DNA of 64,000 bases, taken from positions 8,119 through 72,118 of the forward strand of contig DJWJ01000019.1 of the NCBI GenBank assembly GCA_002440965.1, written 5' to 3'. A model generated the notes under the pieces. It was not told the DNA's origin. It ran no database searches and was given only the letters and a program-made list of their open reading frames with translations. The stretch's first letter is position 1, and each line of letters opens with the position of its first letter. This DNA comes from Candidatus Omnitrophica bacterium UBA6233 (GTDB taxonomy: Bacteria; Omnitrophota; Gorgyraeia; Gygaellales; Profunditerraquicolaceae). Both the position numbers and the translations under genes were made by a program. This document shows, piece after piece, positions 2,905 through 40,438 of the stretch.

Positions 2905-3463
2905 GATTTAGCATAAGGAAGTTAGCCGCGCTTTTGAGGTTTTTAAAGATAAAATCCGGCTGAACTTCCCAATTTTTTTGATTCGCAAGTTTTTCTTTTC
3001 CCGAAAGGACAAGAATGGATTTACAGCCAGCGCGATTTGCGGTAATTACATCACGAATAGTATCGCCTATAAAAAATGAACGTGTAATATCGAACTTAAA
3101 TTCCTTTGCCGCATTCTTTAACAACCCGGGCTTTGGCTTGCGGCAGGAACACCCGGCGTCTTTACGATGAATGCAATAATAAACTTTATCTATTTTACCG
3201 CCGGCTTCTTCTACTTCCAGAAGCATCTTGCGGGTAATAGCTTCAAGGGTGCGTTTGGCATATATGCCTCTTCCAACACCAGCCTGATTAGAAGCAATAA
3301 AGATTTTGAATCCGTTCTTGCTTAATTTGGCAATTGCAGATTTTGCGCCTGGCAAAAAACTAAACTTCTTAACCGAAGTAACGTATAACTTATCCCCCGG
3401 ATACCTGTTAATTACTCCGTCTCTATCCAAAAACACTACTTTTTCCATACTCTTGCGCGTCAT
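2864..3463 (-). CDS. gmhB: D,D-heptose 1,7-bisphosphate phosphatase (HAD-family, GmhB-like); true start possibly at Met6 (3448)
   Basis: 199 aa ORF with HAD motif I FLDRDGVIN and GmhB-like Cys-rich insert (CIHRKDAGCSCRKPKPG); C-terminal codons run into the 2831-2904 hairpin. Confidence 0.6.
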   Translation of the reverse strand: MTRKSMEKVVFLDRDGVINRYPGDKLYVTSVKKFSFLPGAKSAIAKLSKNGFKIFIASNQAGVGRGIYAKRTLEAITRKMLLEVEEAGGKIDKVYYCIHRKDAGCSCRKPKPGLLKNAAKEFKFDITRSFFIGDTIRDVITANRAGCKSILVLSGKEKLANQKNWEVQPDFIFKNLKSAANFLMLNQGRFSTQSKSVPR

Positions 3464-3476
3464 TGCAAAACTTTCT

Positions 3477-3522
3477 CGGACAGCGTGGCAAGCTTACCTC
3501 GGACAGCGTGGCAAGCTTATTT
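3477..3522. repeat. Perfect-to-21/23 tandem duplication of 23-bp unit CGGACAGCGTGGCAAGCTTA(CCT/TTT) between gmhB and GT2 gene
   Basis: Read directly: units at 3477-3499 and 3500-3522. Confidence 0.8.
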
Positions 3523-4264
3523 TTTGCATTTCCTTAAATTTAAGATAACTCAATATCTGATACAAAGAATCGAAATAAGCAATCACAAATCCATACATTC
3601 CATCTTTATACGCCTTCTTGCGCAGGTATCTTCTAAAGAACCTATCCACTGCGCGCCAGGCAGCCCAGATCAAAGTCATTTTTCTGCCGGTATTTATCCA
3701 TTTCTTTGCCTCTAAAGTCGATTGCCGGTTGATGCTATTCAGGAAATGTTCTAAATCCGGATAACCCTTATGGACAATGTCGTTTTTTAAATGCCCGCAT
3801 TTTCCGTCAATGATTGCCCGCGGATGGACTTCCGCTTCTTCATATTTGAATTTATCCTTTCTGAAAAGCCTTACCTTTGAAGCCGGATACCAACCTCCGT
3901 ACTTCACCCAATATTTCCCGATAAAATTACGCAGAGGAATATCGTAAGCGACAAACTCGTCGAACTTAATCGCTTCCTCAATCTCATTTTTTAATTCCGG
4001 AGCCACTTTTTCATCGGCATCCAGGCTCAATACCCACAAGTTAGACGCCTGAGCATAGGCCCAATTCCTATGCTTACCTTCTATATCCATCTTACGGTGA
4101 AAGATCTTATTGGTGTAAATTTTGACGATCTCGATGGTTTTATCCGTACTCTCATCGTCAACTACAATAATTTCATTCGCCCATTTTACCGACTCAAGGC
4201 ATTCGGCAATACAAGATTCCTCATTCTTTGTTATAATAACAACGGATAGATTAGCCATTAACAT
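3494..4264 (-). CDS. Family 2 glycosyltransferase (LPS-core type, WaaE/KdtX-like)
   Basis: 256 aa; VVIITKNEE...IIVVDDESTD...SLDADE motifs (GT2 DxD fold); C-terminal tail encoded by 23-bp tandem repeat. Confidence 0.6.
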   Translation of the reverse strand: MLMANLSVVIITKNEESCIAECLESVKWANEIIVVDDESTDKTIEIVKIYTNKIFHRKMDIEGKHRNWAYAQASNLWVLSLDADEKVAPELKNEIEEAIKFDEFVAYDIPLRNFIGKYWVKYGGWYPASKVRLFRKDKFKYEEAEVHPRAIIDGKCGHLKNDIVHKGYPDLEHFLNSINRQSTLEAKKWINTGRKMTLIWAAWRAVDRFFRRYLRKKAYKDGMYGFVIAYFDSLYQILSYLKFKEMQKISLPRCPR

Positions 4265-5369
4265 ACTCCTTTACAGATTGAATGATATAATCTTGCTCTT
4301 CCCGGGATAACTCCGGATAAATCGGTAAAGTCAAAATCTGGCGCGCCGCAATTTCGGCTTCCGGTAAATCGCCTTTTTTATATCCTAAATACTTAAAACA
4401 CTCCTGTAAATGCAGCGGGATTGGATAAAAAACCCGCGAATCAATTCCTTTCTGGCGCAAATATTCCAGTAAACCCTTGCTTTGTCCTTGGACCCGCAAA
4501 ACATATTGGTGGTAAATATGAGTCGTAAAATCCGCGACAAACGGAACCTTGATAGGTAAACTAGCCAGGTTCCGGTTATAAAATTCAGCGATTTCCATTC
4601 TCTTGTTATTCCAGCCAGCAAGGTATTTTAGCTTAACGCCTAAAACCGCAGCCTGAAGCGAATCCAGGCGGTTATTCCGGCCTAAAATCAAATGGATGTA
4701 GTTATTTCTATTTCCCTGATTACGCAAAATCTTTATTTTTTCAGCTAAACTTTTATTATTGGTAAGGATCGCTCCGGCATCCCCAAAGGCCCCTAAATTC
4801 TTACCGGGATAAAAACTAACCGCTCCGCAATCCCCCAAGGTTCCGGACTTCTTACCTTTATATTCGGCCCCGAAACTTTGCGCCGCATCCTCCACAACTT
4901 TTAGTCCGTATTTACGCGCTAATTTCAAAATTCCGGACATATTCGCGCATTGGCCATAAAGATGCACCGGGATAACCGCTTTAATCTTAACCTTGCTTTT
5001 TCTCGCCAGAATCTTTCTAACGCTTTCGACCGAAATATTATAGGTATCTTTATCAATATCGGCAAAAACCGGAACCGCGCCGATAGCCGCCGCAGCTCCT
5101 GCCGTAGCGTAATAAGTAAATGCGGGGCAAATCACTCCCTCGCCGCTCTTAATACCCAAAGCCAGCAAAGCAAGGCTCAAGGCATCTGTTCCGTTGGATA
5201 CCCCAATAGCGTATTTTACATTGCAATATTGCGCAACATGCCTTTCAAACCGCTCCACGCGTTCTCCAAGAATAAAACCGGCATGGTCAATCACCTCTTT
5301 AATCGCCGCATCCAATTCTCCCCTGATAGGAGCTATTTGCTTCTTTAAATCCAAGGCTGGTATTTTCAT
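4251..5369 (-). CDS. DegT/DnrJ/EryC1/StrS family PLP-dependent sugar aminotransferase
   Basis: 372 aa; GVSNGTDALSLAL and SFYPGKNLGAFGDAG motif retaining the PLP lysine. Confidence 0.75.
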   Translation of the reverse strand: MKIPALDLKKQIAPIRGELDAAIKEVIDHAGFILGERVERFERHVAQYCNVKYAIGVSNGTDALSLALLALGIKSGEGVICPAFTYYATAGAAAAIGAVPVFADIDKDTYNISVESVRKILARKSKVKIKAVIPVHLYGQCANMSGILKLARKYGLKVVEDAAQSFGAEYKGKKSGTLGDCGAVSFYPGKNLGAFGDAGAILTNNKSLAEKIKILRNQGNRNNYIHLILGRNNRLDSLQAAVLGVKLKYLAGWNNKRMEIAEFYNRNLASLPIKVPFVADFTTHIYHQYVLRVQGQSKGLLEYLRQKGIDSRVFYPIPLHLQECFKYLGYKKGDLPEAEIAARQILTLPIYPELSREEQDYIIQSVKEYVNG

Positions 5370-8017: not shown

Positions 8018-8572
8018 TTAAAATTCGGATTGCAGCATCTTAATCCTTAATACGCTTATCTTCGCTCTTTCTTTCTTTCTTTCTTTTGACACAATTAGTT
8101 TATGTAAAGCGAAAACTGCCGGATGGGGCAGATTAATTCTTAAACTGCCAATTTTAACATTAATAAGCTTACTTGTAAGCAAGTTAAGATATCTAAGCCT
8201 CTGGGCGTTAACACCAAGTTCGGGTAATTTAAACGGCTGGTCTAAACCTGCTCCTTTTTCCGAAACTAAAAATTCCAAAACAAGATCAGGATGCTCTAAT
8301 TTTATATATCCTTGCGGCCCCTTAAAACCAAGGATAAAACCAAGATCTTTCAATAAATCTTCCAAATCAACCTTGGCTTTTATACCTAATGGCAATGGAA
8401 CAAGCAAATCAACATCTCTAGTTGTTATAGAGGTGACATACTTTGACCCGGAGAAATATTCCTTATAGAAGGGAATGCACCAGCTTCCAACAAGAACCAG
8501 ATTTTTTAACGCCCCCACTTTATCTAATCTGCTTAAAACCTCAATGCACAAATCATACTGACTGTTTTCCAC
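8018..8572 (-). CDS. Nucleotidyltransferase-fold protein (Pol-beta-like NTase, possible toxin/Abi-type)
   Basis: 184 aa; GS-x9-DxD motif (SGSKYVTSITTRDVD) typical of minimal nucleotidyltransferases; no homology to glycan genes around it. Confidence 0.4.
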   Translation of the reverse strand: MENSQYDLCIEVLSRLDKVGALKNLVLVGSWCIPFYKEYFSGSKYVTSITTRDVDLLVPLPLGIKAKVDLEDLLKDLGFILGFKGPQGYIKLEHPDLVLEFLVSEKGAGLDQPFKLPELGVNAQRLRYLNLLTSKLINVKIGSLRINLPHPAVFALHKLIVSKERKKERAKISVLRIKMLQSEF

Positions 8573-8870
8573 GCAAAGAACTCCTCAAAAACTTGATTTG
8601 TTTTCGTAATTTGGATAAATATCCCCTGTATTTAGTTCTATAAAATTTCACATCTTTATAGCGTTTAATTTCAACAGGAGACAACTTTCCTTTATAGCGA
8701 AATTTAACTTTCCCATTCTCTCTTGAAATAACATAAAAATATTCATGCCCCTTGACCTTTTTCTTTATTAGGCTGCCTTTTGGCAGCTTAGCTAACTCCC
8801 TTAAATAATCTTTTTCCATTTGAAGGGAATTATTTAACTCTTCTCTTAACACATTCTTGATCGTACCCAT
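8553..8870 (-). CDS. Small highly basic hypothetical protein (105 aa), overlaps downstream NTase gene by 20 nt
   Basis: Lys/Arg-rich ORF (KKKVKGHEYFYVISRENGKVKFRYKGK), translationally coupled with 8018..8572; function unknown. Confidence 0.3.
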   Translation of the reverse strand: MGTIKNVLREELNNSLQMEKDYLRELAKLPKGSLIKKKVKGHEYFYVISRENGKVKFRYKGKLSPVEIKRYKDVKFYRTKYRGYLSKLRKQIKFLRSSLRGKQSV

Positions 8871-8930
8871 CGCCTTAGCCTCCTGATATGAATATCAAGA
8901 GTATTTTATAATATTCAGCCTTAAAATACA

Positions 8931-8980
8931 ACAAAAAAGTTACCATACAAAAATCAAAACTACATACTTTGTATGGTAAC
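8931..8980 (-). terminator. Rho-independent terminator downstream of heptosyltransferase gene 9088..9993
   Basis: Perfect 13-bp inverted repeat GTTACCATACAAA (8939-8951) / TTTGTATGGTAAC (8968-8980), 16-nt loop, followed on the transcribed (minus) strand by TTTTTTGTTG. Confidence 0.5.
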
Positions 8981-9087
8981 TTTAAGTGTGCCCAAATCCA
9001 CTCTCCTAATGTCCCTAACTAGAATTCTTATACAAATACAAATAATTAACAAATACGTTAACTATCTGCACTTAGCCCATATCAAAT

Positions 9088-27779: not shown

Positions 27780-27833
27780 GGGGACGGTTCTATTTTTCTT
27801 AAATACCTAAACCGGAAAAATAGAACCGTCCCC
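27780..27833 (-). repeat. 19-bp-stem hairpin of the GGGACGGTTCT family, 10 nt upstream of start codon of 26837..27769; T-run follows on the minus strand
   Basis: GGGGACGGTTCTATTTTTC (27780-27798) pairs perfectly with GAAAAATAGAACCGTCCCC (27815-27833); 16-nt loop. Confidence 0.6.
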
Positions 27834-28808
27834 TTTAGCTCCCCTTTTAACCCTATAGCTTTCTATTGTTTGGATTAAACCCGCTAAAACAGAGAACTTA
27901 GGCTTCCAACCGAGTTTAGCCCTGGCTTTGCGGGAAGACAAATACTGATGTTTTATTTCATACTTCGCCTGATTCAATATTTTATAATCAACTGGTTTGC
28001 CAACGGATTTAGCAATCATTTTAACCAGTTCGATGACCGTAAGCGGATTTTCACAGCTAAAATTAAAAGCTTCACCGGCAAGGTTAAGCTTCCGCATTTT
28101 TTCCGCTAAAAGGATATAGCCGTTCACTATGTCCTCCACGAACACATAATCGCGGGTAAACAGACCGTCGCTGCGGATTAAAAGTTTTTTTCCGGCAAGC
28201 GCGCATTTAACCGCATCAGGAACAAGACGGCTGGAATTAAAATCTCCGGGGCCGTAGATGTTACCGCAACGAGTAACACATACAGGCAGGCCATAGGTAT
28301 GGGCGTAGGTATTGGCGATTAAATCCGCGCAGCTTTTGGAAACATCATACGGATGGCTGCCTTGTAACGGAGCCTTTTCCGTATAGGGAAGTTTTTCATG
28401 GATTCCATAGGCCTTATCGCTAGAGGCGAGAATAACTGCTTCGATGTTTTTTGCGTTCCGGCAGGCCTCCAAAACATTCCAGGTTCCCCGGATATTCGCA
28501 GAAAAAGCTGACAAGGGGCGGTTATGGCATTTCCCTACAATGGCCTCTGCCGCTAAATGGAATACCAGATTAATCTTATTTTCCCTTATTATTTTTTCTA
28601 ACAGTTTATAGTTCGCCACGCTGCCTTTAACAACGGATATCCTCTTATAGTCATCCGGAGCAAGAAGCGTGGCTTTTCTTTCAGTCTTAATATCTAATCC
28701 GATTATCCTGGCTCCGGAAGGAATCAACGCCCTGGTAAGATTAGAACCCAAGAACCCTTCAAATCCGGTAATCAGCACATTTTTTCCCGCCCAAAATTTC
28801 TTATTCAT
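27807..28808 (-). CDS. ddhB: CDP-glucose 4,6-dehydratase
   Basis: 333 aa; N-terminus KKFWAGKNVLITGFEGFLGSNL matches RfbG/DdhB signature (FW.GK.V..TGhTGFkGsWL). Confidence 0.7.
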   Translation of the reverse strand: MNKKFWAGKNVLITGFEGFLGSNLTRALIPSGARIIGLDIKTERKATLLAPDDYKRISVVKGSVANYKLLEKIIRENKINLVFHLAAEAIVGKCHNRPLSAFSANIRGTWNVLEACRNAKNIEAVILASSDKAYGIHEKLPYTEKAPLQGSHPYDVSKSCADLIANTYAHTYGLPVCVTRCGNIYGPGDFNSSRLVPDAVKCALAGKKLLIRSDGLFTRDYVFVEDIVNGYILLAEKMRKLNLAGEAFNFSCENPLTVIELVKMIAKSVGKPVDYKILNQAKYEIKHQYLSSRKARAKLGWKPKFSVLAGLIQTIESYRVKRGAKGDGSIFPV

Positions 28809-29604: not shown

Positions 29605-30816
29605 TTATGGCTTAAAAACCGGTTCTTGCTCAAGCTTAGAGCTTAAGGCAACCGTCAAGCCTAATACCGTCCAAAAAAGAAAACTTAACTGAAAAGAATA
29701 CAGGTGAACCTCAAAAAAACTATGGACTAAAAACCCCAATAACCCCGCAGTCAGGCCCAATAAAGCAAAACTACCCAGAGATCCGGGCGCGCTTAAACTT
29801 ATCCTGATACTCCTGTAGAAAATATAGCCCATAAACAGAAGAAAACACAATAAGGAAAAAACTCCCGATTCCGCCCAAATTTGAAGGAAACAATTATGCG
29901 CGTAAAAAATACCCGGGCTATTGGTATAGGAAGCGCAATAATCCATAAAAGTGCCGATACCCTTACCCAAAAAAGGGTGCTCCCTAATCATCCGGCCGGC
30001 GCCGCGGAAAAGAGTGAACCTGTAACTATCCCGCCTGTTCTGGAAGAAAAATAAAAGCAATCCCAATAACGGCACAAAAAAAAGATAGCAAACCAAAAAC
30101 AGGGGCCAAAATACTTTTTTTAGCCGGAGACGGTTAGTGACTAAAACTATAAGAATTAAACCGGAAACAACGCCTAACCACCCGCCCCGGGAAAGAGCCC
30201 AAAGAGAAGACAGGATAAGCATAATGGTAATCAGAAAAAGGCACAATCTTACAGCCGCTTTTTTCCATTTCCACAGGCTAAGGCTCAAGGCAAGGGGAAT
30301 AACGCAGGTCAAATAAGCTGCCAAGGCATTTGGATTTTTAAAAGGGCCTATGCTGGGCAACGAATGGCCCCATGAACCCCTTCCTCTTAAGAATTCAAAC
30401 CCAAAAAACTTTTGCGTAAAAACCGTAAGCCCTACCAGCGCCGCGCTAAACAAGAGGACATAAACCGCCTTAACAATGCGCTTGGTATCCTTAAACGTAT
30501 CGATAATTGCCCAAAGAAGCAAAGGAAACCTGCCCCATTTCAAGATAAGCACCTTTAAGCTTTTAGCCAATAATGGCCCGCTGTTAAACAGGGACAAACC
30601 CATAAAGACAAAAAATAACAGCAGGAATAAAAACAAAACTTTATTGGCCTTGATACTGGAAAAATCGGGGAATAAAATTTTTTTAAGCAAAAAGAAGGCA
30701 AGGACAAAACCGGCAAAAGAACCGATCATCGCTATAGAGATGGGGATAAAGAATATCAACCCGTAAACAGAATATTCCACCGCCGCGTCCAAAAATCTTA
30801 ATATTTTTAATTTCAT
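29605..30816 (-). CDS. O-antigen ligase/Wzy_C-family membrane protein (second paralog)
   Basis: 403 aa polytopic; WALSRGGWLGVVSGL loop motif. Confidence 0.5.
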   Translation of the reverse strand: MKLKILRFLDAAVEYSVYGLIFFIPISIAMIGSFAGFVLAFFLLKKILFPDFSSIKANKVLFLFLLLFFVFMGLSLFNSGPLLAKSLKVLILKWGRFPLLLWAIIDTFKDTKRIVKAVYVLLFSAALVGLTVFTQKFFGFEFLRGRGSWGHSLPSIGPFKNPNALAAYLTCVIPLALSLSLWKWKKAAVRLCLFLITIMLILSSLWALSRGGWLGVVSGLILIVLVTNRLRLKKVFWPLFLVCYLFFVPLLGLLLFFFQNRRDSYRFTLFRGAGRMIREHPFLGKGIGTFMDYCASYTNSPGIFYAHNCFLQIWAESGVFSLLCFLLFMGYIFYRSIRISLSAPGSLGSFALLGLTAGLLGFLVHSFFEVHLYSFQLSFLFWTVLGLTVALSSKLEQEPVFKP

Positions 30817-32639
30817 AGAGGTATTATTTCGCGCAATTTCTTAACCGTTGCCGCCCCGTCCATTACGCCTGCCGTTCTTTCCAGCTCCTTGATTTTGCGC
30901 CTTAAGACGCGCGGGTCAAAAGAATCCGACTGGGCAATATAAATCTTATCCGCCTTGGTAGCTTTGTCTTTTTCGCTATTTAACAAGGTCTCCTCAAAAA
31001 GCTTTTCTCCCGGGCGCAAGCCGATAAACTTTATCTTTATGTCTTCTTCGGGCTTTAAGCCATAAAGAGCAATCAACTCTTTGGCTAAATCCAATATCTT
31101 AATCTGCTCGCCCATATCCAAAATAAATATTTCTCCCGCTTTAGCCATAGCTCCGGCCTGCAAAACAAGCTGGCTGGCTTCATTAATGCTCATAAAATAC
31201 CTTTTGACTTCGGGATGAGTCAGGGTTACCGGGCCGCCTTCTTCGATTTGTTTCTTGAATAACGGAACAACGCTTCCGTCAGAACCCAAAACATTCCCAA
31301 ACCTAACCGCCATAAATTTAGTTTTGCTCATCCTAGCCTTAGACTGCAAAACCATCTCCGCTACCCTTTTAGTAATACCCATAACACTCTTGGGGTTTAC
31401 CGCCTTATCCGTAGAAATAAAGATAAACCTTTCCACTTTGTAATGATCCGAGGCATAAATAAGGTTCCGGCTTCCGATAATATTATTTTTTACCGCTGCC
31501 GCGGGATTCTCCTCCATAAGAGGAACATGCTTATGGGCTGCCGCGTGGAATACAACTTGCGGCTTGTAAAGCGAAAACACCTTCTTTAACAAACCAATGT
31601 CTCTGATATCCCCAATGATGGTCTTAAACTTAATCTTCGGGTATTTTGTCAGAAATTCAATACCCAAATAATAGACATTGTTCTCATTGTGGTCGAATAA
31701 CAAGATTTCCCTAGGGCTAAAATTCATTATCTGCCTGCAAAGAGACGAACCGATTGAGCCGCCAGCGCCGGTAACTAAAACCACTTTATCAAATAAATAA
31801 TCCTTAATCTCTTTTTCATCGATATTTACCGTTTCTCTGCCCAAAAGGTCTTCCGGTTTAATATCCCGGGGCTTAACTTCCAAATCGCCATTAAGTATCT
31901 TTTGCAAACCCGGGACTATCCGGATTTTCACAGAAGGTATCTGGCAACGCGAAATGATATTCCTGATTACTTCGCCTTTGGCAGAAGGAATGGCTATGAT
32001 GATTTCGTCAATTCCGTATTTTTCGACAATCGAAGCGATATCGTTACAGGCTCCCAAAATACCCACGCCTTGAATACGCAAATTCTTTTTGTTCCTATCA
32101 TCGTCAATAAAACCGATAATCTCCATATTTGTGTTGGGATTAATCCTGGCCTCTCTTAACACCATTACACCGGCTTCTCCCGCCCCGATAATGATAGCCC
32201 TCTTCCGTTTGCTTTCCAGAACAGGACGGAACTTTTCCCGGAATAACCGCGTAACGAAACGGATCCCGGCGACAAAACAAAAACTTATGACACCATCCAA
32301 GATAAAGACCGAGCGCGGGAAACCATTAAAATAAGGGATGAAAACAACCACGGCGGTAAAACAGAATATGGCTAGAATATGCGCTTTGATTATTCTCCAG
32401 ATATCATCTATACTGGCGTATCTCCATAAACCGGAATAAAGGCCAAAATACCCGAAAATAATCATTTTGATAGCGGCAAAAACCGGGAGGGTTTTGATAA
32501 TTACCTGCCAAGAGCTGTTGTCAATTTTAAAATCCAACCGCAGGTAAAAAGCGAGGATATAGGCGCAAATCACCAAGGCCAAATGAATGGTTATGATAAT
32601 CAGGCGCCGGGATTTAAAGATTAATTCCTTTAGGTTCAT
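30813..32639 (-). CDS. Membrane-anchored NDP-sugar 4,6-dehydratase (CapD/WbpM/PglF family)
   Basis: 608 aa; 4 N-terminal TM helices, two Rossmann domains (AIIIGAGEAG; VLVTGAGGSIGSSL), YxxxK region. Confidence 0.8.
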   Translation of the reverse strand: MNLKELIFKSRRLIIITIHLALVICAYILAFYLRLDFKIDNSSWQVIIKTLPVFAAIKMIIFGYFGLYSGLWRYASIDDIWRIIKAHILAIFCFTAVVVFIPYFNGFPRSVFILDGVISFCFVAGIRFVTRLFREKFRPVLESKRKRAIIIGAGEAGVMVLREARINPNTNMEIIGFIDDDRNKKNLRIQGVGILGACNDIASIVEKYGIDEIIIAIPSAKGEVIRNIISRCQIPSVKIRIVPGLQKILNGDLEVKPRDIKPEDLLGRETVNIDEKEIKDYLFDKVVLVTGAGGSIGSSLCRQIMNFSPREILLFDHNENNVYYLGIEFLTKYPKIKFKTIIGDIRDIGLLKKVFSLYKPQVVFHAAAHKHVPLMEENPAAAVKNNIIGSRNLIYASDHYKVERFIFISTDKAVNPKSVMGITKRVAEMVLQSKARMSKTKFMAVRFGNVLGSDGSVVPLFKKQIEEGGPVTLTHPEVKRYFMSINEASQLVLQAGAMAKAGEIFILDMGEQIKILDLAKELIALYGLKPEEDIKIKFIGLRPGEKLFEETLLNSEKDKATKADKIYIAQSDSFDPRVLRRKIKELERTAGVMDGAATVKKLREIIPL

Positions 32640-33005
32640 AACCAGATATTATATATCAAAATACAGCTTTAGCAATTAGTTATGCGATTTTTTTACATTG
32701 TCATTATGGTTGGCACAGGGCCAATTAGGTTATAATGAGCTTAAAAAACAAAGTGGATTTATATGTCAAGGCTATTTAAGAAATGCAATGACCGCGATAT
32801 TTTTTAAGTACAATAGCACCAAACATCTCGGACTAGGCTCTTTTATAATGGCTTCTATATAAGGCAATTTAGGCGATAATTTTTAAAGTATAGTCGCAAT
32901 AAATTGGCATTATATAGGAATTGAGGCTTTTGCAGAAACAGATAAAGCACGCGTCTACCGTAAAAGAGATAATATGCGGTATGTTGTTAGGAAATTTTGC
33001 TGTAG

Positions 33006-33533
33006 TTAATTCAGGGGGGTTTTTATCTTTAGCGTTTTCTCAATATCTTTTAAAAGAAGATACAGGTGGAATTGGTCAATTGGTGAGCGCTCAAAACCAA
33101 AATGCTCATAAAAAGATCTGGCTGGTTCATCTTTGGCATGCACTACAATAGCTCTTCCACCGATGCTATCGGCTGCATAGGTAACCCGCAGCAAAGCCTC
33201 TCGCAACAAAGCCTTTCCTATGCCGACGCCTTGTTCGGTTTTATCAACAGCAAGCCGCGCGAGAATGATAACTGGAATAGGGTAATCAGCCAGCCCTTTT
33301 CCTACGCGTAGAGGGGCCTCCTGCTTGCCTACAGAACCAATGGTTAGCGTATAATATCCTACGACTTTATTATTTCTGATTGTTACGTATGTTTTTGAGG
33401 AACCATTTTGGTTATTAATAATTGCGTATTTTTTAAGATACGAATTGAGGGCTTCGTTACGGCAGTCAAATTCACTAATGGAATGTGATCTTTGGAGTAA
33501 AGTGGGAGTGCTTAAAGAAAGCTTCCTACTCAT
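33006..33533 (-). CDS. GNAT-family acetyltransferase toxin (TacT/AtaT/KacT-like, partner of DUF1778 antitoxin)
   Basis: 175 aa; LARLAVDKTEQGVGIGKALL acetyl-CoA motif; 8-nt overlap with upstream antitoxin. Confidence 0.7.
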   Translation of the reverse strand: MSRKLSLSTPTLLQRSHSISEFDCRNEALNSYLKKYAIINNQNGSSKTYVTIRNNKVVGYYTLTIGSVGKQEAPLRVGKGLADYPIPVIILARLAVDKTEQGVGIGKALLREALLRVTYAADSIGGRAIVVHAKDEPARSFYEHFGFERSPIDQFHLYLLLKDIEKTLKIKTPLN

Positions 33534-33801
33534 TAAAAATATCCGGCCCCTTAAAGAGGTTTTTTAGCTTTGGAATTTCGCGAGCCGGACTATCCAATGC
33601 CTCGCAGAAAGCCTTCCACTGTGGTTCAGGCAGTTGGAAATTGTTCCTATCAGCCATTAATTCTTCCGCTTCTTTCATTGCGCTTTCAAGAATAAATGCA
33701 GATAGCTTTTTTTGGCGTAGCGAAGCCACATACATAAGGAATCTTTTTTTCCTGCTGTCGATACGGAAGTCAATCCGTGTATTTTTCTGTATTGTTGCCA
33801 T
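33526..33801 (-). CDS. DUF1778/TacA-family antitoxin (RHH-like)
   Basis: Start at Met16 of track ORF (MATIQKNTRIDFRIDSRKKRFL...): ATG 33799-33801 preceded by AAGGAGGT RBS. Confidence 0.65.
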   Translation of the reverse strand: MATIQKNTRIDFRIDSRKKRFLMYVASLRQKKLSAFILESAMKEAEELMADRNNFQLPEPQWKAFCEALDSPAREIPKLKNLFKGPDIFNE

Positions 33802-33827
33802 ATTTCTTACCTCCTTTACCCAATAAA

Positions 33828-33855
33828 AATATAACATATTGTACACACATTGTCA
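33828..33855 (-). promoter_or_regulatory. Sigma70-type promoter of GNAT TA operon with TGTGTACA palindrome (putative autoregulatory operator)
   Basis: On minus strand TTGACA-16 nt-TATATT, ~30 nt upstream of antitoxin ATG. Confidence 0.5.
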
Positions 33856-33882
33856 ACACAAAGTTTTTACATTGCGATTTTT

Positions 33883-34446
33883 TTAATGCCGGACGCCTTC
33901 TTTGCGGATAACTTTTATTGCGGTCAAGAAAAGAATACGGAGATCGAAGGCAAAGGAGAGATGATTTAGATAATATTCATCGAAGGAAACCTTTACGGGA
34001 ATCGGCAGGTCATCCCTGCCGTTGACCTGGGCCCAACCGGTGATACCGGGAGTAAGCTTATAGACCCCATTATCCGTCCTTAAGGCGACAAGGTCATCCT
34101 GATTAAACAAAGCCGGGCGCGGCCCGACAAAACTCATATCTCCCTTTAAAATATTGAACAACTGCGGAAGTTCATCGAGGCTGGATTTACGCAAAAACCC
34201 GGAGCCGGGAATCAAATACTTTTCAGGATTTTCCATCAAATGCGTGGCTACCTGGGGCGTATTTAATTTCATTGTCCTGAACTTAGCCATTTTAAAAATG
34301 GTATTGTTTGCGCCAACGCGATCCGTCCAAAAAATAGCCGGCCCCTTAGACATTAGCTTAATGAATAAGGCGATAACTAACATCGGAACGCTCAATAGAA
34401 TTATTAATGCTAAAGCCAAGATTAAATCAAAAATTCGTTTCATCAT
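33883..34446 (-). CDS. Initiating undecaprenyl-phosphate sugar phosphotransferase, small type (PglC/WbaP-C-terminal family)
   Basis: MKRIFDLILALALIILL... single TM then FRTM...DELPQLFNILKGDMSFVGPRP catalytic motif. Confidence 0.8.
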   Translation of the reverse strand: MMKRIFDLILALALIILLSVPMLVIALFIKLMSKGPAIFWTDRVGANNTIFKMAKFRTMKLNTPQVATHLMENPEKYLIPGSGFLRKSSLDELPQLFNILKGDMSFVGPRPALFNQDDLVALRTDNGVYKLTPGITGWAQVNGRDDLPIPVKVSFDEYYLNHLSFAFDLRILFLTAIKVIRKEGVRH

Positions 34447-34481
34447 ATCACTAATACATTCCAAGATATTAGCTACGCTGT

Positions 34482-35297
34482 CTATCTTACTTTAATTCTT
34501 TTAGTTTGCCCTAAGAAATTGTCTCTTGAAACAATAGGCCTTCTTATCCTTTTTTCCAACTGTTTTCTGGCATTACCGGCGATATCTCCTCCTGCTTTGG
34601 CATCGGATTTAAGCTTCGGCACGCCTTGCGAATCTTCAACGCGATGGATTTCGGTAGTTGATCTTTCTCCAAGCATTGTAAAAATAAGCTCAAAATCGTC
34701 CATATGGTCGCGTAGATTTTCACGTTTTAACCGTTTTATCTTTTTATACTGGCTAGGCGTAATTCCAAAAGTGGCTTTAGAGATTTCTGCCGTTAAAATT
34801 TCATAATCCTTTTGTTCTTGCGCCCCGCGTTTCTGCCATTCATCCGTAAGTTCTTCCCGAATGGCAATGCCCCGTATCCGTTTTTCAATCCAGCTATCGG
34901 GATATCCTTTGAGCTTATAGAGCATCCTTGTTCGCTTGGTTGCCAATTCCGGGTCTTCTATCTCTTTAATACGTTCATAACCAACTTTAGCCAACCACCG
35001 CTTAAATGGCTCGGCTTTAGGAGATGGAATTGACTGAACAATACGAAAAATGCCTTCGGTATTGGCGCAATTCAGCTTTTGAGGCCCTCCTGCCGTCTTA
35101 ATCAAAAGGGGGGTGGCAAATTGCCCCCACCCTTTGGACAACTCCGGATCCCTTCTACGCATATCCTTTATGTACCCATCAGGCTGCACCGAATCCGTAA
35201 GTACCGCCACTACATCATTAATCACAAACCACCATTCATTATTATGAATGGTTTTACGCACCTTTTGCCCCTTAAATACTGCTATTTTTGTTTCCAT
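34482..35297 (-). CDS. Bro-N domain protein (phage antirepressor/DinD-like)
   Basis: 271 aa; N-terminal IAVFKGQKVRKTIHNNEWWFVINDVVAVL resembles Bro-N/DinD family. Confidence 0.55.
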   Translation of the reverse strand: METKIAVFKGQKVRKTIHNNEWWFVINDVVAVLTDSVQPDGYIKDMRRRDPELSKGWGQFATPLLIKTAGGPQKLNCANTEGIFRIVQSIPSPKAEPFKRWLAKVGYERIKEIEDPELATKRTRMLYKLKGYPDSWIEKRIRGIAIREELTDEWQKRGAQEQKDYEILTAEISKATFGITPSQYKKIKRLKRENLRDHMDDFELIFTMLGERSTTEIHRVEDSQGVPKLKSDAKAGGDIAGNARKQLEKRIRRPIVSRDNFLGQTKRIKVR

Positions 35298-35413
35298 ATC
35301 GCCCTTCTCCTTTCTCGCGTTATTATTATTTACCCTCTACTATAATTGACGCAAGAAAAGGCCAAATCTAACATTTATTTCTCAATACTAAACCCCTTTA
35401 ACCATCCCCTGAT

Positions 35414-35462
35414 CCCATCCTTGCAGGGTGAAGGGCGGGGGGAGCAGCCAAACAGCTTACCT
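35414..35462. repeat. Copy A of recurring GC-rich intergenic motif (CCATCCTTGCAGGGTGAAGGGCGGGG + AGCCAAACAGCTTACC tail)
   Basis: Direct comparison with copies B-D. Confidence 0.7.
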
Positions 35463-36634
35463 TATAATATCTTTCCCGACCATAGTTGCTGCAAAAAAAT
35501 CTCCCATGGTGATATTTCTATTTTACCGTGCAGCCTTTTCTCCTTTTCATTACAGACTACTATGCTTTTTTTTGGAGAACACGATTGGATAAAAGCCTCT
35601 AGCCCATTCATATCTTTTCCGTCAATCCGAGCAGATCCTTTTACCTCTATAGCAACCTCCCCCTGGCCCAGGACAAAATCAACCTCAAGCCCCGACTTGG
35701 TCCTCCAGAAATTTATCGCAAAGTCCTTACCCGCGTAAGATCTATAAGCAATCATCTCCATAAGCAAGAAATGTTCGAACGCCTTACCAAATTCCGCTCC
35801 TTTTTGTTCGGCTAAATGCCTCTTTGTCAGGTAACCGGCGACACCAACATCAAACATATAATATTTCGAGGCTTTTGTTATAACCTGCCGGGATTGCCTT
35901 TTCTTAAAAGGCTCTACCCTTACAGCCAACAGCGTATCTATAAGTATCTGGTAATACTCTTTGACCGTCTTGGAATCGACACCGCATTCGCGGGCAATAT
36001 TACAATAATTCGTTATCTCGCCATGCGAGTAGCCGAAAGCGTCAAAAAATCTTGAAAACGCGGGAATATTACGTGTCAGGCCTTCAGCAAAAACCTCTTC
36101 ACGTAAATAATCCTGCACATAAGCCTCTAAAGATTTTTTACAATCTATGCCGCTTTGCAAATAATGAAACGGAATCAGGCCATGATTTAAAGCGCGCAAC
36201 AAATCAAATTTTGTAATCTCCCGGCTGACAAGCGGAAAAAGCTCATAACGCCATGCCCTGCCTCCCAGCAGATTCGCGTGGCCTTTTTTTAATTTTCTTG
36301 CGCTTGAACCGCAAAGCACAAAACTCAAACCCTTATTTTCTATCAACCAGTGCACTTCGTCGAGCACTTGCGGAACTTTTTGCACTTCATCGAGTATTAC
36401 CGGTTCTTTAAGCACAACCTCGTCTTTTGCGAGTAACTGTTCGCGCAAAAGCGAGGGATTTTTTGATATTTCAAAAAATAAATCCGTTTTTAGAAAATCA
36501 TACACCACGCTATTGGGAAATCTTTCTTTCAGATATGTGGATTTGCCTGTCTTTCTGGCTCCCCATAAAAACGCGGATTGGCGATGCGGAAGCCGCATAA
36601 CCAGTTTTCTTGGGATATTTTTCATTTGTATCAT
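35462..36634 (-). CDS. COG1373-type AAA+ ATPase (AAA_14 + DUF4143)
   Basis: 390 aa; Walker A GARKTGKST, Walker B ILDEVQ. Confidence 0.65.
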   Translation of the reverse strand: MIQMKNIPRKLVMRLPHRQSAFLWGARKTGKSTYLKERFPNSVVYDFLKTDLFFEISKNPSLLREQLLAKDEVVLKEPVILDEVQKVPQVLDEVHWLIENKGLSFVLCGSSARKLKKGHANLLGGRAWRYELFPLVSREITKFDLLRALNHGLIPFHYLQSGIDCKKSLEAYVQDYLREEVFAEGLTRNIPAFSRFFDAFGYSHGEITNYCNIARECGVDSKTVKEYYQILIDTLLAVRVEPFKKRQSRQVITKASKYYMFDVGVAGYLTKRHLAEQKGAEFGKAFEHFLLMEMIAYRSYAGKDFAINFWRTKSGLEVDFVLGQGEVAIEVKGSARIDGKDMNGLEAFIQSCSPKKSIVVCNEKEKRLHGKIEISPWEIFLQQLWSGKIL

Positions 36635-36660
36635 CCTCCGGATTAGTATTACTAATTAGG

Positions 36661-36689
36661 AGTATATACCATTTTAGTTAGAGCGTCAA
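36661..36689 (-). promoter_or_regulatory. Near-consensus sigma70 promoter for ATPase gene 35462..36634
   Basis: Minus strand TTGACG-17 nt-TATACT (contains palindrome GTATATAC), 27 nt upstream of ATG. Confidence 0.5.
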
Positions 36690-36696
36690 GGCTTTT

Positions 36697-36750
36697 CCCC
36701 CATCTTGCAGAGTCAAGGGCGGGGTAAGAGCCTTTCTTTAACCTTACCTA
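36697..36750. repeat. Copy B of recurring GC-rich motif (CCCCATCTTGCAGAGTCAAGGGCGGGG + ...AACCTTACC)
   Basis: Alignment to copies A, C, D. Confidence 0.7.
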
Positions 36751-37934
36751 TTGAGGAGTCCGGCAAGAAATAGCGGCCGCTTTATACCAACCATATTATA
36801 GCCATCAGCAAAGATAATTTTTGTTTTGATACCCATACCCTTGAACTGGCTTCTCCCCTTGCCCTTACCGCCAACTTCAAAGACGATATCTTGCGAATCA
36901 CGAATAAGATAATCCGGCGTTTTTGCCCCGCGCATAGACTTAAGATAAAAAACTTCTTTGCCTAAGGCCCTAAACGCTTCCACAAAAAAATCCTCCCGCA
37001 AGCCACCGATAGCCTCATCAAACGGTTTATACAAAAGACGATACGGCAAAGCCATGACAACCTTAGGCTCCTTCATCACATTGCTCCCCATTGGGAAAAT
37101 CCGATGCAAAACAAAAGCCCGTTCCAAAAGCGTAATATACTGTTCAGCTTTATACTTGGTAATATGAACATTCTGTGACACCGAGGAATAGTTGATTCCG
37201 TCAACCCCTGAGCGCCCAATAAAACGGACAAGCTGTTCTATCTTTTCCAGCTCACCGGTCAGGAGCCTGGCGATATGAGGGATATCTTTACGAATAATCG
37301 TTTTGAGGATGTTTTCTAAAAGCGCCAGGGGCTGCGGTTCCCGCAAAGCGAATGGCATAAGGCCACCCTGGATATACGATAAAAAATGTTCTCCCGCCCT
37401 AAAAACATCCGCGGGGATCTTTCCCTCAACAATATTCTGGATGGTTAAGACGGTAAACTCCTGCCCATATTTGAATTTCGCGTACTCCCGCAACGAAAAA
37501 GGATAAAGGGTTTTGAGCAGGACACGCCGCGATAAATCGTAACCCGATTCATACATCCCTAATGCCGTAGAACTGGTGAAGATCACCCTGATGTCAAAAA
37601 CATCGTAGAGTTTCTTGAGGTCGGCTTCAAAACGGGGATAAACATGCACTTCATCCAACAAAAACAACCTTATCCGCATCGTTTCATGCAAAGCCTTAAC
37701 GAGATCAAAAAGATCACCCTCCATAGCATCCAGGGATACATAAAAAGACCCTTCATTTGCCAGGGCCAGTTGTTTAAGCATGATCGTCTTGCCTGCTCCG
37801 CGCGGCCCAACGATTCCAATAAAATGAGCTCCGGCATCCCGAGTAATGTCGTCATAAAGCTCACGCTTTTTATCGTATTTCTGTCCATCTTTCTTGGCCA
37901 GACGGTCAAATTCAAGCAATTGATTGATATTCAT
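36744..37934 (-). CDS. COG1373-type AAA+ ATPase (AAA_14 + DUF4143), divergent paralog
   Basis: 396 aa; Walker A GPRGAGKT, Walker B LLDEVH. Confidence 0.55.
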   Translation of the reverse strand: MNINQLLEFDRLAKKDGQKYDKKRELYDDITRDAGAHFIGIVGPRGAGKTIMLKQLALANEGSFYVSLDAMEGDLFDLVKALHETMRIRLFLLDEVHVYPRFEADLKKLYDVFDIRVIFTSSTALGMYESGYDLSRRVLLKTLYPFSLREYAKFKYGQEFTVLTIQNIVEGKIPADVFRAGEHFLSYIQGGLMPFALREPQPLALLENILKTIIRKDIPHIARLLTGELEKIEQLVRFIGRSGVDGINYSSVSQNVHITKYKAEQYITLLERAFVLHRIFPMGSNVMKEPKVVMALPYRLLYKPFDEAIGGLREDFFVEAFRALGKEVFYLKSMRGAKTPDYLIRDSQDIVFEVGGKGKGRSQFKGMGIKTKIIFADGYNMVGIKRPLFLAGLLNR

Positions 37935-37969
37935 CTTATCTTTCTATTTTACTGTTACAAGTATATCAC

Positions 37970-37997
37970 AAATATACATTCTGTCAAATTGTTTTAT
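37970..37997 (-). promoter_or_regulatory. Near-consensus sigma70 promoter with GTATAT-N5-ATATAC palindrome for ATPase gene 36744..37934
   Basis: Minus strand TTGACA-16 nt-TATACT; palindrome GTATATCACAAATATAC overlaps spacer/-10; near-identical module at 39034-39062. Confidence 0.5.
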
Positions 37998-38083
37998 GGA
38001 ATGCTTATCATTACAGATAATTCCTATCGCTAATGCAGCTAATTTTTATTTTACGCTTTCATGCCCCCTAGCCATCTCCCTAA

Positions 38084-38130
38084 TCCCCTCTTGCAGGATG
38101 AAGGGCGGGGGACAGCCAAGAAAACGCTAT
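38084..38130. repeat. Copy C of recurring GC-rich motif (CCCTCTTGCAGGATGAAGGGCGGGGG + ACAGCCAAG)
   Basis: Alignment to copies A, B, D. Confidence 0.7.
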
Positions 38131-38133
38131 CTG

Positions 38134-38493
38134 TTATTCCGCTAATTCTTTTTCTTTTAATATTTTGTAATTTGTTTTAAAGTAGGTATTGAATATTACC
38201 CGGAAACTATTGTAGGGAGATATCGCAGGCCAGACAACTTCGCAACTTTTACCCGGCAGGTAATAAGCATTAAGGATGGATAATTTGGTGTTTTCGCTAT
38301 ATTTACCACGCCTATATCCATGGTCGCCTTGAAGAACAATAATCGGTTTTTTTACAGATTTAAGAAGAATCTCGTCAATAACTTCTAATATCAGCTTATT
38401 AGTTCCTAACACCTGTTCTATATAAGCGGAACTATCCATCATCCCCTTTCGTTTCCACAAAGGTATAACATTGGCATCCCGGTCAAAAATCAA
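38134..38493 (-). pseudogene. C-terminal remnant of an alkaline-phosphatase-superfamily sulfatase/phosphoethanolamine- or phosphoglycerol-transferase
   Basis: 119-aa ORF containing IIVLQGDHGYRRG, which matches the conserved C-terminal metal-site motif (xxGDHG) of sulfatase/LtaS/EptA enzymes; N-terminal ~400 aa catalytic and membrane parts absent. Confidence 0.4.
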
Positions 38494-38515
38494 TGGTTCA
38501 TGAGGAGTATACTGC

Positions 38516-38788
38516 CTAATTTATGTTTCTATATACCGAGGCTCGAGAGGCAATCAAAGTAACAAAAACTTTATTCTTCTCTTTGTCAATCCCGTAAATC
38601 GCGCGGTAATCACCTACCCGGTATCTATAACGCCTCTTCTCACCCTTTAGCACCTTTATATTCGGGCCCCAGAAAGGATTACTTTCAAGCTCCTCAAAAC
38701 ACTTATTTAACCTTTTTGCCAGCTCTTCCGGGCAAGACTTATAGGACTTAAGCGCAGCCGGCATCAAAAGGACTTCAAAATTACCCAC
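38516..38788 (-). CDS. RelE/ParE-family type II toxin
   Basis: 90 aa; RYRVGDYRAIYGIDKEKNKVFVTLI typical RelE/ParE fold signature; overlaps antitoxin by 8 nt. Confidence 0.6.
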   Translation of the reverse strand: MGNFEVLLMPAALKSYKSCPEELAKRLNKCFEELESNPFWGPNIKVLKGEKRRYRYRVGDYRAIYGIDKEKNKVFVTLIASRASVYRNIN

Positions 38789-39014
38789 GCTTTACTTTTC
38801 TCCATCTGGTGCCTTTGCCTTTCAGGTATTGTCTTTCGCCCTCGGCAACAATCTTTTGCTCTGCCGAAGTAAGAGAGCCCTCTATCTGCTCAACAATCAA
38901 TTCCCGGACAAATGAGGACATTGACATATACCTCTTTTTGCAGATCTTAACTGTTTCGTTATAAAGCGAGGATGGCATTCTTATCAAAAGCTCTTTATTC
39001 ATAGTTACAGACAT
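38781..39014 (-). CDS. Ribbon-helix-helix (CopG-like) antitoxin
   Basis: Start at Met32 of track ORF (MSVTMNKELLIRMPSSLYNETVKI...), ATG 39012-39014 preceded by GGAGGTGA RBS. Confidence 0.5.
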   Translation of the reverse strand: MSVTMNKELLIRMPSSLYNETVKICKKRYMSMSSFVRELIVEQIEGSLTSAEQKIVAEGERQYLKGKGTRWRKVKRG

Positions 39015-39033
39015 TTTTATCACCTCCGAAGAA

Positions 39034-39062
39034 AGTATATCATAGTGATATACTTTTGTCAA
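39034..39062 (-). promoter_or_regulatory. Consensus sigma70 promoter with GTATATCACTATGATATAC palindromic operator for RelE/RHH operon
   Basis: Minus strand TTGACA-17 nt-TATACT; perfect 8/8 palindrome arms spanning spacer and -10. Confidence 0.6.
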
Positions 39063-39154
39063 GCGGCATCCGTTACCCTCTCCATAGTCCGTATACAAGG
39101 TGCCCAACGGCCAGACGAAGAGCCCAAGCTGCGCGGCAATCCGTTAGCTTTTAA

Positions 39155-39200
39155 TGGTTCCTCTAATCCCCTCTTCCAGCGTAAACGGCGGCTTCCAGCC
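39155..39200. repeat. Copy D (degenerate) of recurring motif (TAATCCCCTCTTCCAGCGTAAACGGCGGCTTCCAGCCAAG)
   Basis: Shares TAATCCCCTCTT-CAG and AGCCAAG blocks with copy C. Confidence 0.5.
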
Positions 39201-39286
39201 AAGCAAATTCCTGATTTTTTTGCTATCAACGACAGAATTCCTGTCCCACGAGAATCCACATGTTATGATGTACCTCTCTCCTAATG

Positions 39287-40438
39287 CTACTCATGACTCA
39301 CCCGCTGCTGGAGCAAACTCTTTGCCGCACTAATGACAGAACTAACCTCTATAGCCATCATGCAAAGGCTTACGAACTCATTTCCGAGTGGCGACAAATA
39401 AGGACAATCAGGTACTATTGCTCTTTCAATATCTATACAAGGGCTACAAGATGCTCCTTTATAGAGTACGACCGCACTCTTGGAAAACGGCCGATACCGA
39501 TTGGGAGAGTTTGGGCCAAAAAGCCCAATTACCCCTGCCCCTTGGGCGGCTGCCAAATGCATTGGCCCTGTATCATTGGCCACCACTAGCTTAACAACCG
39601 AAAACAATGAAATTAGCTGCCTGATATTTGTCTTCCCCGCTAGGTTGTTTACTTTTAACCGATATCTTGGCTCGACACTATTGACCAGATCATCGCAAAG
39701 TTTAACTTCGGCCTTACTTCCAGTTATACTAACGTTTAGCCCTTGCTCATCAATAATCCACTTAGCCAATTTAGCAAAGCAACTGACAGGCCATCTTCGG
39801 CCCAACCCGGTGTTACCCGACCCAGGATGCAAAACTACCTGAACATTTAACGACCTTGCCCATTCAACATTTTCAGCATCACATGGCAATGATACTAATC
39901 CATCTAGATCCTGCTCTATTCCACAAGGTTTAAGCAATTGAACGAAATTAAGTGCCGCATGTATGGAAGAATTGAATAAAACTGAAGTTGTTGAACCTAT
40001 ATGTTTACACTGTCGGTCTGAATGAAACGCGACGCGATGGGGCGCATTTGTCGCTCGCGCGCATAATGCTGAAATCCTGGCAAACTGTTCAAAATCAACA
40101 CACATTTCATAGCGAGACCTCCACAGCATCGCAACTAGAGAGCAAAAACGCCAGATTTCACTTTCTTTAAAAAGAATTACATTATCAACCCACGAAGCAG
40201 AAGCTGCGATTTCATATCCTTCCCCCGTTGTAAGAAAATCAATCTGATAGTCTGGGAATTTTTCCTTGAACAACTTAACTCCCGACATGATTAGGACAAC
40301 ATCACCCATACCATACAATTTAATAAACAAAACCCTTCGGCTGTGGATCTTTCGTGGTGGCATAAACCGCAGGACGCTGCATATCAGAAAAAGCAACGGC
40401 ACTCCCACCCAGTAATCCAGTAACTTACGTAATTTCAT
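39287..40438 (-). CDS. Glycosyltransferase family 9 (heptosyltransferase-like)
   Basis: 383 aa; NDTGPMHLAAAQGAGVIGLFGPN motif. Confidence 0.65.
   Translation of the reverse strand: MKLRKLLDYWVGVPLLFLICSVLRFMPPRKIHSRRVLFIKLYGMGDVVLIMSGVKLFKEKFPDYQIDFLTTGEGYEIAASASWVDNVILFKESEIWRFCSLVAMLWRSRYEMCVDFEQFARISALCARATNAPHRVAFHSDRQCKHIGSTTSVLFNSSIHAALNFVQLLKPCGIEQDLDGLVSLPCDAENVEWARSLNVQVVLHPGSGNTGLGRRWPVSCFAKLAKWIIDEQGLNVSITGSKAEVKLCDDLVNSVEPRYRLKVNNLAGKTNIRQLISLFSVVKLVVANDTGPMHLAAAQGAGVIGLFGPNSPNRYRPFSKSAVVLYKGASCSPCIDIERAIVPDCPYLSPLGNEFVSLCMMAIEVSSVISAAKSLLQQRVSHE

Follow-up and report, generated by a model that had tools for sequence, protein, structure and literature searches.

The 64-kb stretch of DNA analyzed here (the window) comes from a Candidatus Omnitrophota bacterium and holds one long co-oriented glycan locus. 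Between the gene for a PglF/CapD-like dehydratase and that for a GT9 glycosyltransferase, this locus contains an island of accessory genes, all on the minus strand, with copies of a GC-rich motif between them. By homology, this motif is a repeated, decaying duplicate of the coding 3′ end of an extended-SDR epimerase gene, which we call T (for tail). The epimerase|pglC junction of this O-antigen-like glycan locus is an additive hotspot of recombination, where self-contained units, each consisting of a predicted promoter and one or two genes, have piled up, separated by non-coding, decaying T duplicates. The initial annotation of this DNA had described a cassette-like accessory island between PglF and GT9; the island is real and variable, and most of the gene families named for it hold in Pfam searches. 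We favor homology-driven and illegitimate recombination over an integron-like system as the process that built it, with a probability of roughly 0.55.

Exactly three copies of the motif CCCGCCCTTSAYYCTGCAAG are present in the 64 kb, at 35420-35439, 36704-36723 and 38090-38109 (0.01 copies expected by chance), and a repeat finder detected a fourth, diverged copy at 39163-39207. Within the window the copies are confined to this locus. They belong to four T copies:

39144-39233, minus strand: T0, the 3′ remnant of the SDR epimerase gene, reading ...VVDSKKIRNLLGWKPPFTLEEGIRGTIKS and then a stop codon (tblastn, nhmmer, translation)
38060-38128, minus strand: T copy m1, a decayed epimerase tail reading FLGCPPPFILQEGIRE... 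(nhmmer motif profile, E 1e-17)
36685-36736, minus strand: T copy m2, a decayed epimerase tail reading ALTPPLTLQDGG... (nhmmer motif profile, E 2e-9)
35397-35460, minus strand: T copy m3, a decayed and frameshifted epimerase tail (PPPFTLQ.../DGIRGW...; nhmmer motif profile, E 6e-14)

When translated, all four agree with the conserved epimerase C-terminus LGWKPPFTLEEGIR, m1 to m3 being decayed or frameshifted. T0 is 86% identical to residues 283-310 of the intact epimerase of L129 (tblastn, E 1e-9; related loci are designated by L numbers) and was matched by an nhmmer profile built from intact epimerase 3′ ends only (E 6e-21). It is 78% identical to m1 over 45 nt, and m1 was itself matched by the same independent profile (E 1e-4). 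Because translations, tblastn and nhmmer all match intact epimerases, we take the motif to be a duplicate of the epimerase tail. The body of the epimerase gene is missing, and the stub at 39144-39233 is all of it that survives in this genome; its reading frame may extend to 39286, just past the GT9 stop codon. The motif had been thought to bound every accessory unit. This holds for the RHH-ParE/sulfatase segment and the two ATPase units described below; no copy lies between the Bro-N gene and pglC or around the TacAT pair.

Every copy lies between genes, after a stop codon and ahead of a promoter, as would be expected if the motif were a conserved regulatory element of the operon (a promoter or terminator) or a dispersed repeat of the repetitive extragenic palindromic (REP) or miniature inverted-repeat transposable element (MITE) type, with no role in rearrangement. 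However, the promoter hexamers are distinct from the motif and lie 20-90 nt further downstream. The DNA folding z-scores of the four copies (-0.6, -2.1, +0.8 and +1.4) indicate no shared structure and none better than that of shuffled sequence, no stable hairpin or T-run typical of a terminator was found in the T copies, and an Rfam scan of 32000-40000 with E-values returned no family. Unlike REP and MITE repeats, which are palindromic and dispersed through genomes, the T copies are not palindromic and within the 64 kb are restricted to this locus. Their homology to coding sequence, together with a polymorphism between strains that breaks exactly at the motif (see L001 below), also speaks against an element of this kind. 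This explanation is already largely refuted and we regard it as very improbable.

To gather orthologous loci, we scanned species-representative genomes for PglF and obtained 80 loci. Three genes of the window serve as landmarks in this comparison:

30813-32639, minus strand: PglF/CapD-like dehydratase gene, island flank and anchor for gathering orthologous loci
33883-34446, minus strand: gene for a PglC-type initiating sugar-phosphate transferase of 187 aa (Pfam Bac_transf, E 4e-56, for the ORF at 33883-34464; 80% identity to the L129 PglC)
39287-40438, minus strand: GT9 glycosyltransferase gene (Pfam Glyco_transf_9, E 8e-29), island flank abutting the epimerase remnant

In 18 species an intact epimerase gene encoding 310-330 aa directly adjoins or overlaps pglC, which is followed by pglF, and we took this arrangement as the ancestral state. 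In 11 species, inserts of 1-8 kb break up the epimerase|pglC junction, with pglC as the conserved downstream anchor of the hotspot. Seven assemblies representing six species (the window and L001 are strains of one) hold from 2 to at least 6 T copies, and between these copies lie toxin-antitoxin (TA) pairs, AbiE, RhuM/Fic, COG1373 ATPases and some glycan genes.

The content of these arrays differs from genome to genome. In the near-identical strain L001 (99.6% identity over 9.1 kb), one extra unit of ~1 kb lies exactly between two T copies. L119 has the order T-AbiE-T-ATPase1-T-ATPase-T-ParD/PemK-pglC, in which AbiE and ParD/PemK replace units of the window. At least six T copies of 80-300 bp are found in L137, between genes for a helix-turn-helix (HTH) protein, MNT/HEPN, RhuM-Fic, Gp49/HTH, an aspartyl protease, a CopG antitoxin and two COG1373 ATPases. 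L178 has retained an intact epimerase gene, followed by an ATPase gene, a duplicate of the 3′ end of its own epimerase gene (305 of 306 bp identical), a PLD-like gene and pglC; the stop codon of the ATPase gene falls inside T, and cargo ends meet T without a spacer. Cargo related to glycans consists of a flippase in L128 and a UDP-GlcNAc 2-epimerase in L193 (both by Pfam), and the insert of L194 encodes a 484-aa protein that is radical-SAM-like by eye. Defense-type genes of the relatives include AbiE, HEPN/MNT and HipA. The comparison of orthologous loci proposed in the initial annotation thus shows that units are independently present or absent (L001, L119, L137, L139, L178 and others). A uniform gene order with the motif absent elsewhere, which would have pointed to simple operon promoters, was not what we observed: gene content differs between genomes, and in several species units are bordered by the motif. 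The arrangement of the window was found in 14 contigs from several samples, and for this reason an assembly chimera is unlikely.

A short leader also recurs in these arrays:

35364-35385, minus strand: 22-nt leader TTGAGAAATAAATGTTAGATTT (TTGARAAATAAATGTTAGATTT), identified by exact pattern matches in related arrays

It is present in L001 (439-460 and 4188-4209), L136 (267-288), L137 (5577-5598) and L139 (2234-2255), as well as in L208 and L212, two extracts of contig Draft_10000291 with the window's own arrangement. The leader comes after T copies and ahead of different cargo genes (Bro-N, RhuM and CopG).

Several further features of the arrays were observed. Three genes upstream of the T copy in L155 (positions 90-5046) enlarge the array by bulkier defense-like cargo; by eye, their products appear to be a protein of the Fic family, a helicase-like protein of 890 aa and a protein with a SWIM zinc finger. 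A 42-aa ORF of L001 resembled the N-terminus of DUF1016 by eye, but Pfam returned no match and we leave it without an assignment. The contig end beside the L119 array (1-52, minus strand) may encode a putative IS110-like N-terminus, MVYSPNEYDIFIGIDVD. An 18-mer scan of metagenomes for the motif returned at least 117 matches, essentially all of them due to chance among the matches listed; the one look-alike among them, L025, proved to be an unrelated peptidase locus.

The cargo has a history distinct from that of its surroundings. A given cargo unit was found with the same ends in different genomes, starting ~10 nt ahead of the -35 hexamer and ending with the stop codon, while the T copies beside shared cargo are, unlike the cargo, specific to each genome. 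Identity at third codon positions is 0.75-0.85 for shared ATPase genes versus 0.53-0.64 for the adjacent pglF and pglC genes, an indication that the cargo has been shared more recently than the flanks. Within Omnitrophota the ATPase1 family is very large and highly conserved, with 82-93% identity among the best 120 of 8000 scored matches, many of which lie on contigs of 1-3 kb, and contigs of this population often break inside ATPase1. The ATPase1 promoter-plus-ORF (open reading frame) unit is present in unrelated contexts (L119, L120, L122, L215 and L219), and homologues elsewhere lie in a pyr operon, at ribF, or near TA genes, insertion sequence (IS) elements or Y1 transposase genes. In L215, a DDE_Tnp_1 IS (134-1096) adjoins a cluster of ParE and ATPase1. 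Neither the T core nor ATPase1 was found in the viral contigs scanned. We considered the COG1373 ATPase as the maker of the flanking duplications and rejected it, as the ATPase1 homologues in L120 and L122 have no flanking direct repeats.

How might such arrays arise? In the process we favor, no dedicated recombinase would be needed. A new unit would enter by homologous recombination anchored in epimerase or T sequence, while its other end would be joined illegitimately upstream of the resident T, in a manner likened to homology-facilitated illegitimate recombination and to the displacement of orphan modules. Alternatively, recombination between two T copies could loop out a circle of cargo plus T, which would then integrate into a resident T in Campbell style. 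Either route would leave a T on each side of the newcomer, and subsequent recombination between T copies would delete or reshuffle units.

Five observations argue against a dedicated integron-like system. Firstly, no recombinase or transposase was recognized in the 64 kb (minus-strand ORFs of at least 110 aa inspected by eye, unrecognized ones by Pfam), and the related loci that were read by eye showed no recombinase. Secondly, T lengths range from ~25 to 306 bp, with 5′ ends spread across positions 97-403 of the profile and 3′ ends at the end of the gene. Thirdly, some copies overrun this end: one reaches ~35 nt into pglC, and others take in the epimerase-pglC spacer or a shared leader of 22-48 nt. 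Fourthly, within a genome the T copies have lineage-specific MITE insertions in common, and the closest relative of a copy is mostly another copy from that genome. Finally, some junctions cut genes, namely the sulfatase-like gene of the window and, judged by eye, the truncated Bro-N copies in L001 and L119.

Some of the data would fit a site-specific cassette system, in which T is an attachment site and circles of cargo plus T are moved by a recombinase whose gene lies outside the locus. Integrase-mediated insertion classically leaves direct repeats that come from a gene's 3′ end, the same site is used in 11 species, and the cargo consists of discrete units of TA or defense type. The 3′ core of T, GGAAGAGGGGATTAGGGAGA, is nearly invariant, one T copy was seemingly imported along with its cargo, and in L153 an ATPase gene followed by a T copy occupies a different site, between pglC and pglF. 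On the other hand, a single core would give one boundary instead of repeats of ~25 to 306 bp with scattered 5′ ends, and a tail borne by an element would not be expected to match the host gene at 305 of 306 bp, as seen in L178. Boundaries that at times reach into pglC or a neighboring leader, junctions that truncate genes, and a core without inverted-repeat or attC-like structure also weigh against such a system, as does the lack of a recombinase in the DNA surveyed. We therefore consider it unlikely. A broader version of the idea is an undescribed Omnitrophota gene-capture system, in which the 3′ end of a housekeeping glycan epimerase gene would be used repeatedly as the attachment site of small cassettes with their own promoters (TA, Abi, COG1373 ATPase-nuclease and glycan-modifying genes). 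The COG1373 ATPase/PD-(D/E)XK-like proteins themselves, or else a recombinase from outside the locus, would mobilize these cassettes. If true, this would be a functional analogue of the integron without IntI or attC; we hold it to be quite unlikely.

Another possibility is template switching during replication, similar to microhomology-mediated break-induced replication (MMBIR) or fork stalling and template switching (FoSTeS). A fork stalled at the epimerase|pglC junction would copy foreign DNA and re-enter upstream, giving an insertion together with a duplication of variable length. This would account for flanking duplications that vary in length and are sometimes perfect, and for cargo ends that meet T without a spacer, including the ATPase stop codon inside T in L178; moreover, palindromic MITEs, which are potential fork stallers, are common at this locus in the relatives. 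However, it leaves unexplained why the same cargo units have the same ends in different genomes and why T copies can resemble the T of another genome, and we judge it highly unlikely.

The palindromic MITE/REP-like element, GGGGACGnnTCTATTTTTC...GAAAAATAGAAMCGTCCCC, which is distinct from T, is found in the window at 27780-27833 and 1356-1408, one of these copies providing the last codons of a dehydratase gene (27807-28808). In the relatives it occurs in L119 (3880-3940, 5250-5310 and 6125-6200) and in the pglC-pglF spacers of L128, L130, L136 and L137, and it is also inserted in frame within pglC and within T copies.

Homology-driven and illegitimate recombination has its own difficulties. 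The use of one junction in many species and the sharp ends of the cargo fit a site-specific system too. The T copies of the window are only ~45-60 bp long and 75-85% alike, so they would be poor substrates for RecA. One T copy of L137 is closest to the T of another genome, which hints that T may travel with cargo. In L155, L193, L194 and L153 there are insertions at the site without T duplication, and duplication is thus not obligatory. No circular intermediate or hybrid T copy was directly observed, and the recombinase survey of this genome covers 64 kb only.

We found no description of such arrays in the searchable literature, although elements of known systems are recognizable. The initial annotation had likened the layout to a superintegron. 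As in integrons and superintegrons, there is a co-oriented array of units of one or two genes, rich in TA genes, with one repeat per unit and a content that varies between strains. However, there is no IntI and no attI here, and the array is flanked by GT9 and PglF genes. An attC site is an imperfect palindrome with R″/L″-L′/R′ boxes (GTTRRRY cores) that folds as single-stranded DNA, whereas T is a non-folding, decayed coding tail with lengths of ~25 to 306 bp. Integron cassettes are co-oriented and, with the exception of TA cassettes, mostly promoterless; the units described here are co-oriented too, but four of the five have predicted promoters. The comparison to superintegrons was therefore not upheld, given the missing integrase, the units' own predicted promoters, the non-folding motif and its homology to the epimerase tail; the accompanying remark that no integrase and no canonical attC are visible agrees with our 64-kb survey and with the folding analysis.

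Tandem accretion without a resident integrase is known at the 3′ ends of genes, as for the cis-mobilizable elements (CIMEs) beside ICESt1 and ICESt3 in fda of Streptococcus thermophilus; further examples of accretion at 3′ ends are e14 and phage 21 in icd and the repeated tRNA-Pro 3′ ends of Prochlorococcus islands. The likeness lies in direct repeats from the 3′ end of a conserved gene, in tandem elements and in the lack of an integrase of their own, and such repeats stand at element borders in four T copies of the window and at least six of L137. In contrast to CIMEs, the units here measure only 1-1.5 kb, no integrase is seen at either end of the array, there is no constant att core or crossover position (T 5′ ends at 97-403), and the target gene is not intact in the window. 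In complex class 1 integrons with ISCR1 (insertion sequence common region), a duplicated 3′-conserved segment flanks captured genes, which is explained by homologous integration of a circle that carries part of the resident sequence. Captured genes are likewise flanked here by a partial duplicate of resident sequence, but there is no ISCR or rolling-circle transposase. Defense islands and additive flexible genomic islands in hypervariable polysaccharide loci resemble our case in placing TA, Abi and PDC-S01/PDC-S13 genes at a strain-variable glycan spot; they differ in that the units here are bounded by duplicates of a neighboring gene's tail, with no tRNA or integrase anchor.

The displacement of orphan CdiA-CT/CdiI modules in contact-dependent inhibition (CDI) systems offers an analogy (PMC9086364). 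Orphan-module arrays of the CDI and Rhs type consist of a full-length gene followed by modules that each start with a fragment of its conserved region; these modules are thought to have given way to incoming ones through recombination, and the similarity of some of them to modules from other strains is taken as a sign of horizontal transfer. Their modules are alternative C-termini with a cognate immunity gene, whereas those described here are unrelated genes with their own promoters, and what is repeated here is the very 3′ end of a gene. The logic resembles that of att-repeat and orphan-module arrays, and the differences are the lack of a visible recombinase, the independent promoter-bearing cargo and the uncultured phylum.

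Besides pglC and the T copies, the island between the epimerase remnant and pglC contains the following features:

39034-39062, minus strand: promoter of the RHH-ParE unit (39062-39034), TTGACA-17-TATACT, 11 of 12 positions in the promoter scan
38781-39014, minus strand: candidate ribbon-helix-helix (RHH)-like antitoxin of 77 aa (weak DUF6290/RelB matches, E 0.02-0.07)
38516-38788, minus strand: ParE/RelE-family toxin (Pfam ParE_toxin, E 8.6e-9; weak match to NCBIfam RelE_StbE)
38134-38520, minus strand: 5′-truncated remnant of a sulfatase/LtaS-like membrane protein gene, C-terminal ~125 aa (homology to an L191 protein)
36744-37987, minus strand: ATPase2 unit, consisting of a promoter (37987-37960) and an AAA_14/DUF4143 (COG1373) ORF (36744-37934, 396 aa; Pfam; PADLOC PDC-S01, E 5e-22)
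35462-36689, minus strand: ATPase1 unit, consisting of a promoter (36689-36661) and an AAA_14/DUF4143 ORF (35462-36634, 387-390 aa; Pfam; PADLOC PDC-S01, E 6e-47)
34482-35297, minus strand: Bro-N domain protein of 271 aa, a defense candidate (Pfam Bro-N, E 4e-12; PADLOC PDC-S13, E 2.5e-107)

Pfam confirmed the GNAT/DUF1778 pair (described below), Bro-N, PglC and the two COG1373 ATPases, which are as divergent as first described, sharing only 20% identity. The proposed RelE/RHH pair was borne out for its toxin, a ParE protein; the candidate partner has weak matches only, and the position of its ORF, which precedes and overlaps parE, lends support to the call of an RHH antitoxin. The supposed sulfatase remnant is a true gene remnant: its ORF (38134-38493, 119 aa) shares 60% identity (E 2e-54) with residues 343-462 of a sulfatase/LtaS-like membrane protein that L191 keeps intact (468 aa), and thus matches its C-terminal quarter, while Pfam and PDB searches gave a weak sulfatase hint (PDB YdeN, E 0.43). 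It is part of the glycan locus and not accessory cargo as had been assumed. The remnant is joined directly to the parE stop codon, which makes this an illegitimate junction. Each unit had also been credited with a near-consensus promoter of its own. Four of the five cargo units, both ATPase units included, carry predicted sigma-70 matches of 10-11 of 12 positions (directly upstream of RHH-ParE, ATPase2, ATPase1 and TacAT; 11 of 12 each for ATPase2 and TacAT), although promoter-like sites in total show no excess over shuffled sequence, and the promoter scan gave no strong match for Bro-N.

The last of the cargo units, TacAT, lies on the other side of pglC, in the pglC-pglF spacer:

33006-33856, minus strand: TacA (DUF1778)/GNAT TacT-like TA pair with its promoter (33856-33828; Pfam, promoter scan, spacer comparison)
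33526-33846, minus strand: TacA/DUF1778 antitoxin ORF (Pfam TacA1, E 2.7e-19)
33006-33533, minus strand: GNAT toxin ORF (GNAT families, E 1e-9 to 1e-11)
33873-33882, minus strand: left copy of the 10-bp direct repeat AAAAATCGCA (compared to the uninterrupted L129 and L139 spacers)
32683-32692, minus strand: right copy of the same repeat (same comparison)

The two ORFs overlap by 8 nt in the adjacent layout of a DUF1778 antitoxin and a GNAT toxin, and we regard them as a putative TA pair. An uninterrupted pglC-pglF spacer, as in L129 and L139, measures ~50 nt and contains AAAAATCGCA as spacer sequence. Unlike the T repeats, the repeat flanking TacAT looks like a target-site duplication, and neither a transposase nor terminal inverted repeats were seen at this insertion. 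TacAT is a second insertion event, separate from the T array. The pglC|pglF junction holds AbiE, ATPase or other genes in other genomes.

With regard to function, the suggestion that the island has the character of a defense island is supported by its clustered matches to candidate PADLOC models, PDC-S13 for Bro-N and PDC-S01 for both ATPases, the defense role being predicted. A role in defense against phages or in conflict with mobile elements is probable for the ATPase and Bro-N genes, and the TA modules probably stabilize the region. Elsewhere in the window, positions 8018-8572 (minus strand) encode a nucleotidyltransferase of the NTP_transf_8 family (E 5e-17), set apart by long spacers from the genes to either side. 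It resembles a further TA/Abi-like accessory gene within the glycan locus, remote from the island, and may have a partner in 8573-9087. Judged by eye, positions 1-1730 (minus strand) seem to code for the C-terminal portion of a PriA-like primosomal helicase; if so, the locus is chromosomal.

These findings explain a puzzling motif as the molecular fossil of repeated insertions and not as a new type of recombination site. A single intergenic junction, epimerase|pglC, has been struck repeatedly across an uncultured phylum, and TA and candidate defense genes have gathered there inside a locus for a cell-surface glycan, itself a likely target of phages. For Omnitrophota, the arrays constitute a natural inventory of accessory units that are mobile and predicted to be expressed on their own, including PDC-S01 ATPases that are more conserved than the adjacent core genes. 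They are also a tractable system in which to ask whether short portable homology is sufficient for genes to accumulate in an integron-like manner.

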